A stretch of 4,207 bases of DNA from a virus (Duplodnaviria; Heunggongvirae; Uroviricota; Caudoviricetes). Under the pieces are notes generated by a model. It was given only the letters and a program-made list of their open reading frames with translations, did not search any database and had not been told where the DNA came from. Positions 1 through 4,207 of the stretch are shown here, piece after piece. The translations under genes and the position numbers were made by a program. Each line of letters opens with the position of its first letter. The first letter of the stretch is position 1. The stretch lies in IMG/VR virus record IMGVR_UViG_2711768074_000024; one strand, written 5' to 3'.

Positions 1-212
1 TTTTTTTACGCACTGCGGTTAATGATTTCATGGATAGCGTCCACCATATTTGGTGTCCACTATTCTCTCAGGAATTTCAGGATCTGCCAGACGGTGCTGA
101 GACGACGCTTACCTTTGGAATGGGCCTTTGAGGATACCAGTTAGTGCTGGCGAGCCTCGGTGGGCTGGTTTCCTATGCGGCAAAGGTTCATTTCAAAGAA
201 GCAGGCAACGCC

Positions 213-761
213 ATGAATGAATTAATTGCGAATCATGACTTCGACTTTCGCCAGTTAGTTACCGCAGCAGAAGGTCAACCGGTAACTGACACCTTCCAGA
301 TTGCCAGGGCATTTGGTAAACGCCATCAGCATGTGATTAGGGCTATTAAATGTTTGAGATGTTCTGAGGAATTCTCGACAACCCATTTTTGGGCCGTCGA
401 GAAAATCAATGACTTAGGTATTTTTGACAAGAAACAGATTTACTACCGCATGGACTTTAGTGGCTTCGTTATGCTGGTTATGGGATTTAACGGGGCAAAA
501 GCCGATGCTGTTAAAGAAGCCTATATCAATGCGTTTAACTGGATGTCAGCAGAACTCCGTAAGTACAGCGAAAGTTATGAAGCAGAACGTAACGCCGTAA
601 TGCTGGAGTACATGAAAGAGAAGGATGTCGCCAGCATGTCAGGCCGTCTGCTCAATCGCTGGGGGAGAACGAAAAAACCTCAATTGCTTGCAAAGCTGGA
701 ACGTCTGGAGAGACAGGGACAGTTTTTATTACCGGGATTCGATAAAGGTATTCAAGCCTGA
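213..761 (+). CDS. rha: Rha-family phage regulatory protein (Phage_pRha-like N-terminal domain with a C-terminal charged, probably helical, extension)
   Basis: The ORF 144..761 translation contains the motif QPVTDTFQIARAFGKRHQHVIRAIKCL followed by FWAVEKINDLGIFDKKQIYYRMDFSGFVMLVMGFNGAKA, which is characteristic of Rha/antirepressor-like proteins (FGKRH..V.R.I core). Start is uncertain: ATG at 213 (MNELIANHDF...) puts the Rha domain at the usual N-terminal position; the ORF track start is GTG at 144, preceded by GAGGA at 130-134. Stop TGA at 759-761. Confidence 0.75.
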   Translation: MNELIANHDFDFRQLVTAAEGQPVTDTFQIARAFGKRHQHVIRAIKCLRCSEEFSTTHFWAVEKINDLGIFDKKQIYYRMDFSGFVMLVMGFNGAKADAVKEAYINAFNWMSAELRKYSESYEAERNAVMLEYMKEKDVASMSGRLLNRWGRTKKPQLLAKLERLERQGQFLLPGFDKGIQA

Positions 762-786
762 CACATTATGCGCTGTATCGTCGCCG

Positions 787-851
787 TATTCCCGCATTAA
801 CCATGACCGTAGCCCGACGGGGAATTCCTTCTGCGTGAGTGTGCGGGAATA
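787..851. other. Perfect 10-bp inverted repeat (TATTCCCGCA at 787-796, TGCGGGAATA at 842-851) around a 45-nt loop with a smaller internal CCCG..CGGG hairpin; potential structured DNA/RNA element
   Basis: Read directly from the sequence. It sits 26 nt after the rha stop and about 100 nt beyond the 3' end of the minus-strand RHH gene. No U-tract follows on either strand, so it is not a classic intrinsic terminator. Confidence 0.45.
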
Positions 852-948
852 ATCAAAAACGATGCACACCGGGTTTTACTGTGCTGACAGACGCAGGGTT
901 ACCCTCATAGTCGCTTTTCCGGTGCGATGGTGGAAGAAACCGGGATGT

Positions 949-1143
949 TCATCCATCATCACTTTGGATTGATGTATATGCTCTCTTTTCTGACGTTAGT
1001 CTCCGACGGCAGGCTTCAATGACCCAGGCTGAGAAATTCCCAGACCCTTTTTGCTCAAGATCGATGTTAATTTGTTCAATCATTTGGTTAGGAAAGCGGA
1101 TGTTGCGGGTTGTTTTTCTGCGGGTTCTGTTCTTCGTTGACAT
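949..1143 (-). CDS. Small ribbon-helix-helix-like DNA-binding protein, YlcI/YnfO (DUF3950)-like, as found next to cos in lambdoid prophages
   Basis: 64-aa ORF MSTKNRTRRKTTRNIRFPNQMIEQINIDLEQKGSGNFSAWVIEACRRRL... has a basic N-terminal tail, then a beta-strand/helix/G-x-S-x-N loop/helix pattern typical of RHH (Arc/MetJ/CopG) folds. The position immediately upstream of cos and antisense to the late genes matches ylcI (DLP12) and ynfO (Qin) in E. coli K-12, as I recall them. ATG is the complement of 1141-1143; stop is the complement of 949-951. Confidence 0.6.
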   Translation of the reverse strand: MSTKNRTRRKTTRNIRFPNQMIEQINIDLEQKGSGNFSAWVIEACRRRLTSEKRAYTSIQSDDG

Positions 1144-1291
1144 GAGGTTGCCCCGTATTCAGTGTCGCTGATTTGTATTGTCTGAAGTTGTTTTTACGTT
1201 AAGTTGATGCAGATCAATTAATACGATACCTGCGTCATAATTAATTATTTGACGTGGTTTGATGGCGTAGATGCACGTTGTGACATGTAGA

Positions 1292-1306
1292 TGATAATTA
1301 TTATCA
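1292..1306. repeat. Near-perfect 15-bp palindrome TGATAA-TTA-TTATCA just upstream of the cosQ/cosN region
   Basis: Read directly from the sequence: 6-bp arms TGATAA/TTATCA with a 3-bp spacer. Confidence 0.5.
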
Positions 1307-1307
1307 T

Positions 1308-1342
1308 TTTGCGGGTCCTTTCCGGCGATCCGACAGGTTACG
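1308..1342 (+). promoter_or_regulatory. cosQ-containing segment of the cohesive-end site (the right-end side of cosN)
   Basis: TTTGCGGGTCCTTTCCGGCGATCCGACAGGTTACG directly precedes the cosN 12-mer and matches the terminal sequence of the lambda right end as recalled, apart from one or two substitutions. The exact cosQ boundaries are not resolved here. Confidence 0.45.
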
Positions 1343-1354
1343 GGGCGGCGACCT
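1343..1354 (+). other. cosN: cosN: the 12-nt cohesive-end sequence GGGCGGCGACCT, with the top-strand nick predicted between 1342 and 1343 and the bottom-strand nick between 1354 and 1355
   Basis: Exact match to the canonical lambda 5' cohesive end. The downstream flank CGCGGGTTTTCGCTATTTATGAAAATTTTCCGG (1355-1387) matches the start of the lambda genome as recalled. cosN lies 195 nt upstream of the small terminase start, close to the lambda spacing. Confidence 0.85.
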
Positions 1355-1391
1355 CGCGGGTTTTCGCTATTTATGAAAATTTTCCGGGATC

Positions 1392-1401
1392 CATGTCCGG
1401 T
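1392..1401 (-). repeat. R-like repeat, inverted copy (CATGTCCGGT, reverse complement of ACCGGACATG)
   Basis: Direct sequence match. The extended 12-mer AAACCGGACATG is shared with the copy at 1478-1490. Confidence 0.55.
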
Positions 1402-1450
1402 TTCTCTGCAAGTTAACTATATGAAAAATATAAAAACAGGCTGTCCGTGA

Positions 1451-1460
1451 ACCGGACATG
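1451..1460 (+). repeat. R-like repeat, direct copy ACCGGACATG
   Basis: Direct sequence match. Confidence 0.55.
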
Positions 1461-1468
1461 TGCAAAAA

Positions 1469-1477
1469 ACGGACATG
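1469..1477 (+). repeat. R-like repeat, degenerate direct copy ACGGACATG (one C missing)
   Basis: Direct sequence match to the CGGACATG core. Confidence 0.45.
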
Positions 1478-1480
1478 TAA

Positions 1481-1490
1481 ACCGGACATG
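1481..1490 (+). repeat. R-like repeat, direct copy ACCGGACATG, followed by the palindrome ACCGGT
   Basis: Direct sequence match; starts 30 bp after the copy at 1451. Confidence 0.55.
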
Positions 1491-1537
1491 ACCGGTTTTG
1501 TTGTGATTGTGAGGTGAGAGTTTTTGCGAGGTGAGGA

Positions 1538-2047
1538 GTGGCTACGCAGACTGAAGTTGCCAGGCATTTAAGTCTGACCGATCGCCAGCTTCGCAGATTG
1601 CAGAAATTGCCGGGTGCCCCGATATCGAATAAGCGAGGGCAACTGGATCTGGATGCCTGGCGCGATTTTTACATATCGTATCTGAGGAGAAGTAAAAACG
1701 ATGTGCCTGATGGCGATAGCGAAGACGACTATGAGGAGAAATTGCTTATTGCCAGATGGGAACTGACAGCAGAACAGGCTGTTACACAGCAGTTAAAAAA
1801 TGAGGTGTCAAAAGGAAAACTTATTGACACCGGGTTCTGTATTTTTGCCCTCAGTAAGCTGGCAATGGCGTTATCCAGTACGCTTGATTCCATCCCTTTA
1901 TCCATGCAGCGACAGTTTCCTGATTTAACACCGCGCCATCTTGACCATCTGAAAACCCTTATTGCGAAGGGGGCAAATCAGTGTGCGCGGGCAGGGGATA
2001 AATTACCGGATTTACTCGATGAATATATCAGAGCAACAACTGAATAA
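1538..2047 (+). CDS. nu1: Terminase small subunit (lambda Nu1 homolog) with a diverged N-terminal DNA-binding domain
   Basis: The C-terminal two-thirds (…TGFCIFALSKLAMALSSTLDSIPLSMQRQFPDLTPRHLDHLK…LPDLLDEYI…) aligns with the lambda Nu1 C-terminal region as recalled (…TAFCTFVLSRIAGEIASILDGLPLSVQRRFPELENRHVDFLK…). The N-terminal roughly 50 aa is HTH-like but differs from lambda. First gene after cos, overlapping the large-subunit start. GTG start at 1538 with AGGTGA/GAGG just upstream; in-frame stop at 1532-1534 rules out a longer N-terminus. Stop TAA at 2045-2047. Confidence 0.85.
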   Translation: MATQTEVARHLSLTDRQLRRLQKLPGAPISNKRGQLDLDAWRDFYISYLRRSKNDVPDGDSEDDYEEKLLIARWELTAEQAVTQQLKNEVSKGKLIDTGFCIFALSKLAMALSSTLDSIPLSMQRQFPDLTPRHLDHLKTLIAKGANQCARAGDKLPDLLDEYIRATTE

Positions 2048-3947
2048 TATGATGGCTGCCGTTTCGGTTGCGCTGCAGCCTCTGGTCAGGGTTGTACCAA
2101 TGACGGCAGTTGAATGGGCTGATCAAAATTATTATCTGCCTAAAGAATCTTCATATGGTGAGGGAGAATGGAAAACGCTGCCATTCCAGATCGCCATTAT
2201 GAACTGTATGGGTAACGACCAGGTTCGCACGGTTAACCTGATTAAATCTGCCCGTGTTGGCTATACAAAGATGTTGCTGGGGGTGGTCGGGTATTTTATT
2301 GAGCATAAATCCCGAAACAGTCTGCTTTTTCAGCCCACGGATTCTGCCGCTGAAGATTTTATGAAGTCTCACGTGGAGGCGACGATTCGGAACGTGCCAT
2401 GCCTGAAAGACCTTTCCCCATGGCTGGGTCGTAAACATCGTGACAATACTCTCACGCTGAAACGCTTTTCATCGGGCGTCGGTTTCTGGTGCCTGGGCGG
2501 CGCTGCCGCCAAAAACTACCGTGAAAAATCCGTGGACGTGGTCTGCTATGACGAACTTTCCTCGTTCGAGCCGGATGTCGAAAAAGAGGGCTCGCCAACC
2601 CTGCTGGGGGATAAGCGTATTGAGGGGTCGGTGTGGCCAAAATCCATTCGCGGCTCGACGCCTAAAATCAAAGGCACCTGCCAGATCGAAAAAGCCGCTA
2701 ACGAGTCGGCGCATTTTATGCGTTTTTATGTGCCCTGCCCGCACTGTGGGGAGGAGCAGTATCTGAAATTTGGCGATGAGTCCACGCCTTTTGGGCTTAA
2801 ATGGGAGAAGGACAGCCCTGAAAGTGTTTTCTACCTCTGTGAACATCATGGCTGCGTGATCCATCAGTCTGAGCTTGACCAGAGCAACGGGCGGTGGATC
2901 TGTGAAAACACGGGCATGTGGACCCGTGACGGTCTGACGTTTTTCAGCGCCCGGGGTGATGAAATTCCGCCGCCGCGCTCCATCATGTTCCATATCTGGA
3001 CGGCGTACAGTCCGTTCACCACCTGGGTACAGATTGTCTATGACTGGCTGGATGCACTGAAAGATCCCAACGGCCTGAAAACCTTTGTGAACACCACGCT
3101 GGGCGAGACCTGGGAAGAGGCCGTGGGCGAAAAACTCGATCACCAGGTACTGATGGATAAGGTGGTGCGTTACACGGCGGCGGTGCCTGCCCGGGTGGTT
3201 TATCTGACGGCGGGCATTGACTCGCAGCGAAACCGTTTTGAGATGTATGTCTGGGGATGGGCTCCGGGAGAGGAAGCCTTTCTGGTGGATAAAATCATCA
3301 TTATGGGGCGTCCTGATGAGGAAGAGACGCTGTTACGTGTGGATGCGGCGATCAACAAAAAATACCGCCATGCGGATGGCACCGAAATGACTATTTCCCG
3401 TGTCTGCTGGGACACCGGGGGGATCGATGGTGAAATTGTTTATCAGAGATCAAAAAAACACGGTGTTTTCCGGGTGCTGCCGGTAAAAGGCGCATCTGTC
3501 TATGGCAAGCCGGTGATCACCATGCCAAAAACCCGCAATCAGCGGGGCGTGTATCTGTGTGAAGTGGGAACGGATACCGCAAAAGAAATTCTCTATGCCC
3601 GTATGAAAGCCGATCCCACGCCTGCGGATGAAGCCACGTCGTATGCCATCCGTTTTCCTGATGATCCGGAGATTTTTTCGCAGACAGAGGCGCAGCAACT
3701 GGTGGCGGAAGAGCTGGTGGAGAAGTGGGAAAAAGGAAAGATGCGTCTGCTGTGGGATAACAAAAAGCGGCGTAACGAAGCGCTGGACTGCCTGGTGTAT
3801 GCCTACGCGGCATTACGTGTGTCCGTGCAACGCTGGCAGCTTGATCTGGCTGTACTGGCAAAATCCCGGGAAGAAGAGACGACCCGGCCAACCCTGAAAG
3901 AACTGGCAGCGAAGCTGTCCGGAGGAGTGAATGGTTACAGTCGCTGA
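2019..3947 (+). CDS. A: Terminase large subunit (lambda gpA homolog; packaging ATPase and cos endonuclease), 642 aa
   Basis: Collinear with lambda gpA as recalled, from the N-terminus (MNIS…TAVEWADQNYYLPKESSYGEGEWKTLPFQ…) to the C-terminus (…KKRRNEALDC…RWQLDL…). Conserved KSARVGYTK (K76-K84, nt 2244-2270) and CYDELSSF (D178/E179, nt 2550-2555), plus HFMRFYVPCPHCGEEQYLKFGD, VNTTLGETWEE and KGASVYGKP. Start ATG at 2019 chosen by homology (MNIS N-terminus) rather than the ORF-track ATG at 1962; it lies inside the 3' end of nu1. Stop TGA at 3945-3947. Confidence 0.95.
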   Translation: MNISEQQLNNMMAAVSVALQPLVRVVPMTAVEWADQNYYLPKESSYGEGEWKTLPFQIAIMNCMGNDQVRTVNLIKSARVGYTKMLLGVVGYFIEHKSRNSLLFQPTDSAAEDFMKSHVEATIRNVPCLKDLSPWLGRKHRDNTLTLKRFSSGVGFWCLGGAAAKNYREKSVDVVCYDELSSFEPDVEKEGSPTLLGDKRIEGSVWPKSIRGSTPKIKGTCQIEKAANESAHFMRFYVPCPHCGEEQYLKFGDESTPFGLKWEKDSPESVFYLCEHHGCVIHQSELDQSNGRWICENTGMWTRDGLTFFSARGDEIPPPRSIMFHIWTAYSPFTTWVQIVYDWLDALKDPNGLKTFVNTTLGETWEEAVGEKLDHQVLMDKVVRYTAAVPARVVYLTAGIDSQRNRFEMYVWGWAPGEEAFLVDKIIIMGRPDEEETLLRVDAAINKKYRHADGTEMTISRVCWDTGGIDGEIVYQRSKKHGVFRVLPVKGASVYGKPVITMPKTRNQRGVYLCEVGTDTAKEILYARMKADPTPADEATSYAIRFPDDPEIFSQTEAQQLVAEELVEKWEKGKMRLLWDNKKRRNEALDCLVYAYAALRVSVQRWQLDLAVLAKSREEETTRPTLKELAAKLSGGVNGYSR

Positions 3948-4137
3948 ACTGCAGGCGCTGCGTCAGGCGCGCCTTGATTTATTAACCGGTAAACGGGTGG
4001 TGTCTGTCCAGAAAGATGGTCGCAGAATTGAATATACGGCGGCTTCTCTGGATGAGCTTAACCGGGCGATCAATGATGCGGAGTCGGTACTGGGGACAAC
4101 CCGACGTCGCCGTCGTCCGCTGGGAGTGAGGTTATGA
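3931..4137 (+). CDS. W: Head completion / head-tail joining protein gpW homolog (68 aa)
   Basis: MVTVAELQALRQARLDLLTGKRVVSVQKDGRRIEYTAASLDEL…RRRRPLGVRL matches lambda gpW in length and sequence as recalled (…[27 protein letters not shown]…). GGAGGAG at 3921-3927 precedes ATG 3931. Overlaps the end of A by 17 nt. Confidence 0.9.
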   Translation: MVTVAELQALRQARLDLLTGKRVVSVQKDGRRIEYTAASLDELNRAINDAESVLGTTRRRRRPLGVRL

Positions 4138-4207
4138 AACGAACGCCTGTCCTGATTGATGTGAACGGCGTTCCGCTTCGTGAGAGTCTCAGCTACAACG
4201 GGGGCGG
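4134..4207 (+). CDS. B: Portal protein gpB homolog, N-terminal fragment (continues past the window end)
   Basis: ATG at 4134 overlaps the W stop (ATGA). Translation MKRTPVLIDVNGVPLRESLSYNGG resembles the lambda gpB N-terminus (MKTPTIP…SLREYAGYHGGG) as recalled. GAGG at 4127-4130 lies upstream. Expected gene order Nu1-A-W-B. Confidence 0.75.
   Translation, partial: MKRTPVLIDVNGVPLRESLSYNGG

Follow-up and report, generated by a model that had tools for sequence, protein, structure and literature searches.

A P22-type rha gene and the conserved, probably pseudoknotted RNA leader that precedes it

This report concerns the rha gene of a tailed phage and the DNA directly upstream of it, as found in a 4,207-nt stretch (IMG/VR record IMGVR_UViG_2711768074_000024, Caudoviricetes; hereafter the window). 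We think it quite probable that the gene, a P22-type rha ortholog of 182 residues read from ATG213, lies behind a conserved, pseudoknotted RNA leader. The coding sequence occupies 213-761 on the plus strand, with a Rha winged-helix-like domain at approximately nt 285-548 and a C-terminal ORF11CD3 domain at approximately nt 573-734; the 3′ two-thirds of the conserved leader element stands immediately before it at 113-212 (+).

Fold and covariation of the leader RNA

Intact loci display a strong intrinsic terminator, ~15 conserved nt, a small hairpin (P0) and then a long hairpin. The latter is built from P1a, where the Shine-Dalgarno sequence (3′ AAAGG) is paired with 5′ CCUUU, then P1b and P2, between which an internal loop of 6-7 nt interrupts the 3′ strand; its apical region contains an invariant G along with a small hairpin. 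In the window, P1 is formed by 113-130/181-198, P2 by 131-134/171-174 and 136-142/163-169, and the apical hairpin by 146-150/157-161; the internal loop AUGCGG, the pseudoknot partner of a P0 that the window lacks, is at 175-180, and a Shine-Dalgarno-like GCAGG at 201-205. The window leader has a minimum free energy (MFE) of -41.9 kcal/mol (z -3.38), and the same long irregular hairpin appears in single-sequence MFE folds from ~20 genera, at -33 to -52 kcal/mol.

The upstream regions of the homologs, once aligned, reveal evident compensatory changes. A consensus structure was obtained by majority projection of single-sequence folds on a second MAFFT alignment and was then turned into a covariance model, R1. 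On this second alignment, made by MAFFT from sequence alone, 77% of cells form pairs vs 41-60% for slid partners, with double changes in 25 of the 35 pairs; none of 500 shuffles of these related sequences reaches the observed values. The corresponding figures for the model-fitted alignment, which leans to the model, are 84% vs 39-54% and 30/35; here several pairs take all four Watson-Crick types, and double changes affect each of the six pairs of P1a (CCUUU/AAAGG). Cells with G.U outnumber those with A.C (186 vs 76), an excess that indicates an RNA on the plus strand.

The covariance model yields 45 matches in 446 kb searched on both strands, all of them on the gene strand and scoring 42-102 bits. 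The window matches over 106-215 with 93.7 bits (E 1.6e-19) and P22 with 100.4 bits. Of these matches, 44 end at the start codon of Rha or a related gene, and the remaining one (L019, the weakest but one) ends 12 nt past the ATG taken as the start. In 38 of 44 leaders, the MFE fold pairs at least two of the three bases of the Shine-Dalgarno core. Rfam 15 contains no match at E≤1 for the window or for locus L001, and none at E≤0.1 for five other loci. Comparative evidence thus identifies the region upstream of ATG213 as a conserved structured RNA leader that belongs to no Rfam family.

The second interaction involves P0. In every one of 38 aligned leaders, 4-7 nt of the P0 loop are Watson-Crick complementary to the long hairpin's internal loop, and the two segments co-vary through ~13 distinct versions, among them CCGCA/UGCGG, UCGCA/UGCGA, UCUCAC/GUGAGA, UGCCC/GGGCA, UUCGUAC/GUACGAA and CGCUC/GAGCG. 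The pseudoknot was scored by per-sequence complementarity with class permutation, which replaced a column-wise count because gaps shift the register in alignment A6; across 24 distinct combinations, the longest Watson-Crick run averages 5.12 nt vs 3.01 ± 0.23 when permuted, and none of 5000 permutations reaches the observed value. This co-variation implies that P0 belongs to the same RNA and that the transcript starts upstream of P0; most simply, the transcript would be a Q-antiterminated late read-through. P0 had also been considered as a palindromic operator in a promoter spacer with a -10-like box, a candidate dropped because its loop co-varies with the internal loop.

Gene associations of the leader and the P22F small RNA

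A blastn search finds the leader in 969 of 5,426 complete Escherichia coli genomes, about one in six, O157:H7 and Stx phages included. The gene behind it is not always rha. The leader precedes KilA-N+ORF11CD3 genes (99 bits), a P22_AR_N+ORF11CD3 gene of an Stx2a phage (whose Rha+ORF11CD3 gene has a further leader of its own) and a Rha+ANT gene in Rosenbergiella. The same leader and the same C-terminal module therefore flank three N-terminal DNA-binding domains: Rha, KilA-N and P22_AR_N. ORF11CD3 is one of ten Pfam families that make up the "Bro network" of shuffled domains (PMC10111431), and the KilA-N+ORF11CD3 and P22_AR_N+ORF11CD3 genes of O157:H7/Stx prophages, which belong to it, share with the window gene the same or a neighboring slot, a leader (74-99 bits) and ORF11CD3; they differ in that their N-terminal DNA-binding domain is of another fold family than Rha. 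The leader is absent from one bor-carrying phage and from a Pseudomonas phage homolog (43% identity), which is placed before a holin gene.

Several of these loci have arrangements of their own. In Rosenbergiella, a Rha+ANT and then a Rha+ORF11CD3 cassette stand in tandem, each with its leader (L011 3097-4603); in the Stx2a phage (L065 29-2052), P22_AR_N+ORF11CD3 lies before Rz and Rha+ORF11CD3 after it, again with a leader each. In O157:H7 prophages and PhiR49_1, the stop codon of KilA-N+ORF11CD3 is overlapped by an 85-residue open reading frame (ORF) that matches nothing in Pfam (L061 3164-3421; L064 2096-2353). In E. coli EC9952 (L062 2582-4515), nothing but a stub of 22 codons remains behind the leader, and the gene has given way to one of the "sce7726 family" and an opposing one of the "beta family"; these may be defense cargo dropped into the slot. 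Rfam matches not tied to the rha leader occur elsewhere in related loci: a C4 antisense RNA with its a1b1 target in a Ventosimonas metagenome-assembled genome (L031 1829-2025) and a Sib antitoxin RNA in Rouxiella (L008 1521-1671).

An RNA from this region is already known. Among ten small RNAs reported from P22-infected Salmonella (Naaz et al., Noncoding RNA 2026; PMC13397905), P22F is an 89-nt plus-strand species detected by RNA-seq and reverse transcription PCR and described as having "no known function" and "partially overlapping ORF201"; at its 3′ end it stops 6 nt short of the rha ATG, and identical copies exist in some other phages (PMC13397905). The P22F sequence (Table 2 of PMC13397905) is identical to window 119-207 (+) at 87 of 89 nt, with the same offset from the ATG. 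The published account of P22F does not include a covariation-supported fold, the P0 pseudoknot, occlusion of the Shine-Dalgarno sequence or the link to genes of several architectures; as far as we found, no other publication describes the conserved fold or pseudoknot, how the Shine-Dalgarno sequence is paired or which genes the leader accompanies.

We propose that in intact phages, where the intrinsic terminator, P0, the long irregular hairpin, the Shine-Dalgarno sequence and AUG would follow one another in this order, the long hairpin engages the Shine-Dalgarno sequence by pairing at its foot and the P0 loop by pairing at its internal loop. We infer that the leader would, within the late transcript, hold down the downstream gene's translation or make it conditional; processing of the leader may also yield a stable fragment, the P22F RNA. 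Control by RNA pairing at a ribosome-binding site has parallels among Bro-network genes, namely P22 sar/ant and P1/P7 c4/icd-ant (PMC12197685), but sar and c4 are antisense RNAs made from separate promoters, whereas the pairing partner here would act in cis; the C4 and c4-a1b1 Rfam models do not match the leader. The microRNA-size 24B_1 RNA of Phi24B and its d_ant target were considered as a related system and ruled out, as both map to the lom region.

It is unlikely, to our minds, that the element is mainly the gene of a trans-acting small RNA that came to lie upstream of rha by chance. P22F does accumulate, with a length of 89 nt, and has been detected in outer membrane vesicles (PMC13397905), and the element has conserved unpaired residues, G162 and G177. 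Yet the end of nearly every copy has a constant spacing to a start codon, and the copy pairs with that very gene's Shine-Dalgarno sequence; the element travels with Bro-network genes of four architectures, and in the sole copy that lacks an intact gene, the gene has been replaced by cargo, leaving the 22-codon stub. The trans-acting and cis roles are not exclusive.

Identity, domains and start codon of rha

Assignment of the gene to the Rha family, as made in the initial annotation, is upheld by PF09669 (E 7e-21; 75.1 bits vs a cut-off of 29.9), TIGR02681 (E 1.5e-20; 73.3 bits vs a cut-off of 45.95) and PHROG 518 (E 3e-87). The protein is 84% identical (tblastn) to the product of P22 rha (orf201; NP_059624), which is annotated at 39575-40180, directly after gene 15 (Rz). 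Rha follows a recognizable lysozyme or Rz gene in ~19 of 57 diverged loci, and in an E. coli prophage that is 100% identical over 112-4207, the native order is Q, esterase, holin, lysozyme, Rz, rha, ylcI, Nu1, A, W and portal; in the window itself, the upstream neighbor is an insertion sequence (IS). Together, homology and gene order identify an ordinary ortholog of the prototype P22 rha, in a lambda-like prophage, in a variable slot between the lysis cassette and cos. P22 rha and phi80 rha are the founding rha genes, and P22 rha shares with the window gene, besides the 84% identity, the Rha+ORF11CD3 architecture, a post-Rz position in the late region and the leader. The differences are that the phage here is lambda-like, with cos and a Nu1/A terminase, and that an IS66-family insertion separates rha from the lysis genes.

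The rha product is reported to be detrimental to lytic growth when integration host factor (IHF) is lacking (Henthorn & Friedman 1995, as summarized in PMC4936722); tight control by the leader would fit rha products that block phage growth without IHF. The "anti-repressor" labels on P22 and other records rest on similarity only, and Pfam finds no ANT/KilAC domain (PF03374) in the window Rha protein. PADLOC gave no match, and papers on Stx-phage regulation and prophage transcriptomes contain nothing on this gene.

The gene had initially been viewed as a horizontally acquired, moron-like regulator, AT-rich and with a foreign coiled-coil extension at its C terminus. We hold this view to be largely refuted and give it very little probability, although parts of it are sound. 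In particular, rha is indeed more AT-rich than the large terminase gene, but it is not so relative to Nu1, the small-subunit gene: its GC content is 44.4% (213-761) or 46.0% (144-761), as compared with 53.3% for the large terminase gene, 55.6% for the W-like gene, 47.1% for Nu1, 43.6% for ylcI and 43-53% for flanking non-coding DNA. Fisher tests separate rha from the large terminase gene (GC p=3e-4; GC at third codon positions, GC3, p=0.003) and not from Nu1 (GC p=0.42; GC3 46% for Nu1 vs 47% for rha, p=0.92). The sliding GC profile has its step at ~2200-2300, inside the large terminase gene and not at the borders of rha. The left 2.2 kb is moderately AT-rich as a whole and, since rha is like Nu1 and the flanks in GC and GC3, the gene is no compositional island and bears no base composition that would mark a moron.

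The C-terminal domain leads to the same conclusion. The last ~60-80 residues do form a separate helical module, and a coiled coil was a reasonable guess, but the module is neither unusual nor foreign to Rha: it is Pfam ORF11CD3 (PF10549), matched at 54/54 profile positions (E 4e-23; 81.7 bits vs a cut-off of 25) and present in P22 Rha, the founding member. In substance, then, the C-terminal part corresponds to a known Rha C-domain, PF10549 being catalogued though functionally uncharacterized. PF09669 and PF10549 occur together in nearly all of the 120 best homologs, which come from Escherichia, Salmonella, Klebsiella, Erwinia, Pantoea, Yersinia, Shewanella and others. A 29-residue core, E146-G174 (ERNAVMLEYMKEKDVASMSGRLLNRWG), is invariant in a 21-sequence alignment in which identity of the Rha core falls to 35-50%, and it is encoded by 13 distinct nucleotide versions with up to 5 synonymous codons per site; such synonymous saturation under invariant residues argues for purifying selection on the protein rather than recent DNA exchange. 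ORF11CD3 emerges from these alignments as the most conserved and most strongly constrained part of the protein. An AlphaFold2 model of the 182-residue form (38-sequence alignment; mean predicted local distance difference test score 78) has an alpha/beta winged-helix-like domain at residues 12-89 and helices at 95-140 and 144-168, so that ORF11CD3 is predicted to be an antiparallel pair of long helices; a search of PDB sequences returned no match for the protein. We infer that ORF11CD3 may serve as an oligomerization or partner-binding module.

What does recall a moron is the slot. The proposal that rha is swapped between phages holds: its place is taken by bor in phages that are 99.5% identical over window 769-1387, by KilA-N+ORF11CD3 in O157:H7 prophages and PhiR49_1, and by unrelated cargo in one E. 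coli strain. A sharp mosaic joint lies at the rha stop codon (window 761-769); upstream of it, the best phage matches are 90-96% identical and come from few phages, whereas downstream (769-1387), 99.5% matches occur in many lambda-like phages, some with bor instead of rha. The lambda bor moron occupies the same slot, Rz to cos, but on the opposite strand and with its own signals; rha, in contrast, is co-oriented with the late operon, and crude scans found no sigma-70-like promoter upstream of it and no terminator in the ~340 nt past its stop codon. The strong terminator upstream of rha in intact loci belongs to the lysis cassette. Moreover, the position of the gene is kept across many genera.

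The start of the gene is ambiguous, as had been pointed out, and this applies to the sequence and to public annotation alike: the ORF spans 144-761 (+) if read from its GTG codon, and ATG213 lies in the same frame. The upstream start is used by PGAP (WP_000881338.1, 205 residues; L001 6033-6650) and by the P22 RefSeq record (NP_059624.1, 201 residues; L060 2076-2681), and an ATG start by the Sf101 annotation. If GTG144 were the true start, the upstream conservation would reflect a 23-residue N-terminal peptide. The frame is open, GAGGA precedes GTG by 9 nt, and the peptide (MLASLGGLVS.AAKVHFKE) is near-identical in E. coli homologs whose Rha core is only ~50% identical. These features notwithstanding, initiation at GTG144 as the true start appears highly improbable. 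Most homologs have 177-183 residues, matching ATG213; an equivalent of ATG213 is found in essentially all loci, with an in-frame stop 1-4 codons upstream in more than half; and the PHROG 518 alignment begins at residue 23 of the 205-residue form. The conserved upstream 60-100 nt are read in three frames (KVHFKE, GKGSSQRK and RQAHFLKGK), which identifies a conserved nucleotide element, not a peptide, and the same upstream DNA stands before KilA-N and P22_AR_N genes that start at ATG. GTG144 and its apparent Shine-Dalgarno sequence, GAGGA at 130-134, lie inside helices of the covarying hairpin, the former in its apical part and the latter base-paired. Judged from these sequence comparisons, the true start is ATG213, giving 182 residues, and not GTG144; by the same comparisons, WP_000881338.1 and NP_059624.1 start 23 codons too early, inside an RNA hairpin, and the annotated extension at 144-212 (+) is judged non-coding.

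The chances that the element acts as DNA, whether as operator/promoter, IHF site or recombination homology patch, are slimmer still: the sequence of P0 is perfectly palindromic, between P0 and P1 there is a -10-like box rich in A/T, Rha expression reportedly depends on IHF (summary in PMC4936722) and conserved flanks round a swapped N-terminal domain would favor recombination, but the excess of G.U over A.C points to RNA from the gene strand, compensatory changes keep long-range pairing that includes a loop/internal-loop pseudoknot with no rationale in DNA, a discrete RNA arises from the region during P22 infection (PMC13397905) and the scans gave no sigma-70 promoter match.

A P22-type rha ortholog behind a conserved pseudoknotted leader has points weighing against it as well. 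Single-sequence folds were the source of the structure, and the highest pair counts are those of the model-fitted alignment; RNAalifold predicted nothing from the first MAFFT alignment, owing to its misaligned stems; and the relatedness of the sequences means that the shuffle tests overstate significance. Shine-Dalgarno occlusion is an MFE prediction only. The discrete P22F RNA was shown only for P22 infection of Salmonella, and P22F is devoid of P0 and the 5′ foot of P1, so the in-vivo species represents the element only in part and may act in trans. The GTG144 frame, with its good GAGGA, is open in this lineage, and some initiation there is possible. For the protein, no structural homolog was found, the best Foldseek hit against PDB having E 0.48.

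The insertion in this copy, its surroundings and the meaning of the leader

The initial annotation had treated 1-143 as plain upstream DNA and 144-212 as possibly coding; 1-112 proved to be the end of an IS66-family element on the minus strand, and 113-212 the structured leader. By megablast, the IS end is 100% identical to the ends of IS66-like tnpA in 1,447 E. coli genomes, its terminal inverted repeat (...CGCTTAC) is at 106-112, and tnpA starts at 31 on the minus strand and runs off the window; locus L002 is annotated with tnpA, tnpB and an ISEc22-family transposase. Window 1-112 is thus the left end of an ISEc22-like IS66-family element. Prophages without the insertion read ...AACCTGAC|CCTTTGGAATGGG over the junction. 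All megablast matches to prophage begin at position 112 because the IS end abuts the leader there; this common start was first read as a mosaic joint, which the IS66-family end ruled out. The insertion point is the foot of P1. The insertion takes away the terminator, P0 and the outermost P1 pairs and parts rha from the lysis genes and the late promoter, and the rha copy in the window is therefore probably silent or misregulated.

Downstream, rha had been described as next to cos, which is true in a loose sense: cos is 580 nt away, and a minus-strand gene of the YlcI/YnfO family (DUF3950) lies between them at 949-1143 (PF13132, E 8e-19; PHROG 949; PGAP annotation). A cosN-like 12-mer, GGGCGGCGACCT, read directly from the window at 1343-1354 (+), is what we take to be the 12-nt lambda cohesive-end sequence. 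Between cosN and Nu1, CGGACATG occurs four times at 1392-1490, one copy inverted, where 0.14 copies are expected by chance and none of 200 shuffles reaches four; the repeats are probably small-terminase binding sites, analogs of the cosB R sites. Nu1, the small terminase subunit, occupies 1538-2047 (+) (Pfam Phage_Nu1; PGAP annotation of the identical prophage), followed by the large terminase gene at 2019-3947 (+), named from the same annotation, and a W-like gene at 3931-4137.

The rha gene itself is ordinary and already known; it was its ambiguous start that led to an uncatalogued leader RNA. Two corrections result: the domain that had seemed odd is the normal one, and the RefSeq start is over-extended. 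For P22F, the leader supplies a structure and a cis-regulatory hypothesis. Tentatively, and with somewhat less than even confidence, we suggest that the ~150-nt element may represent a new, widespread cis-regulatory RNA family that gates translation of Bro-network genes in lambdoid and P22-like phages in answer to some signal, be it a protein, RNase processing, temperature or a ligand, and that it may supply the link still missing from the Rha phenotype, which depends on IHF and is 40 years old. The leader would thereby offer a handle on the restraint of Rha-type proteins, which are harmful to the phage when overexpressed.

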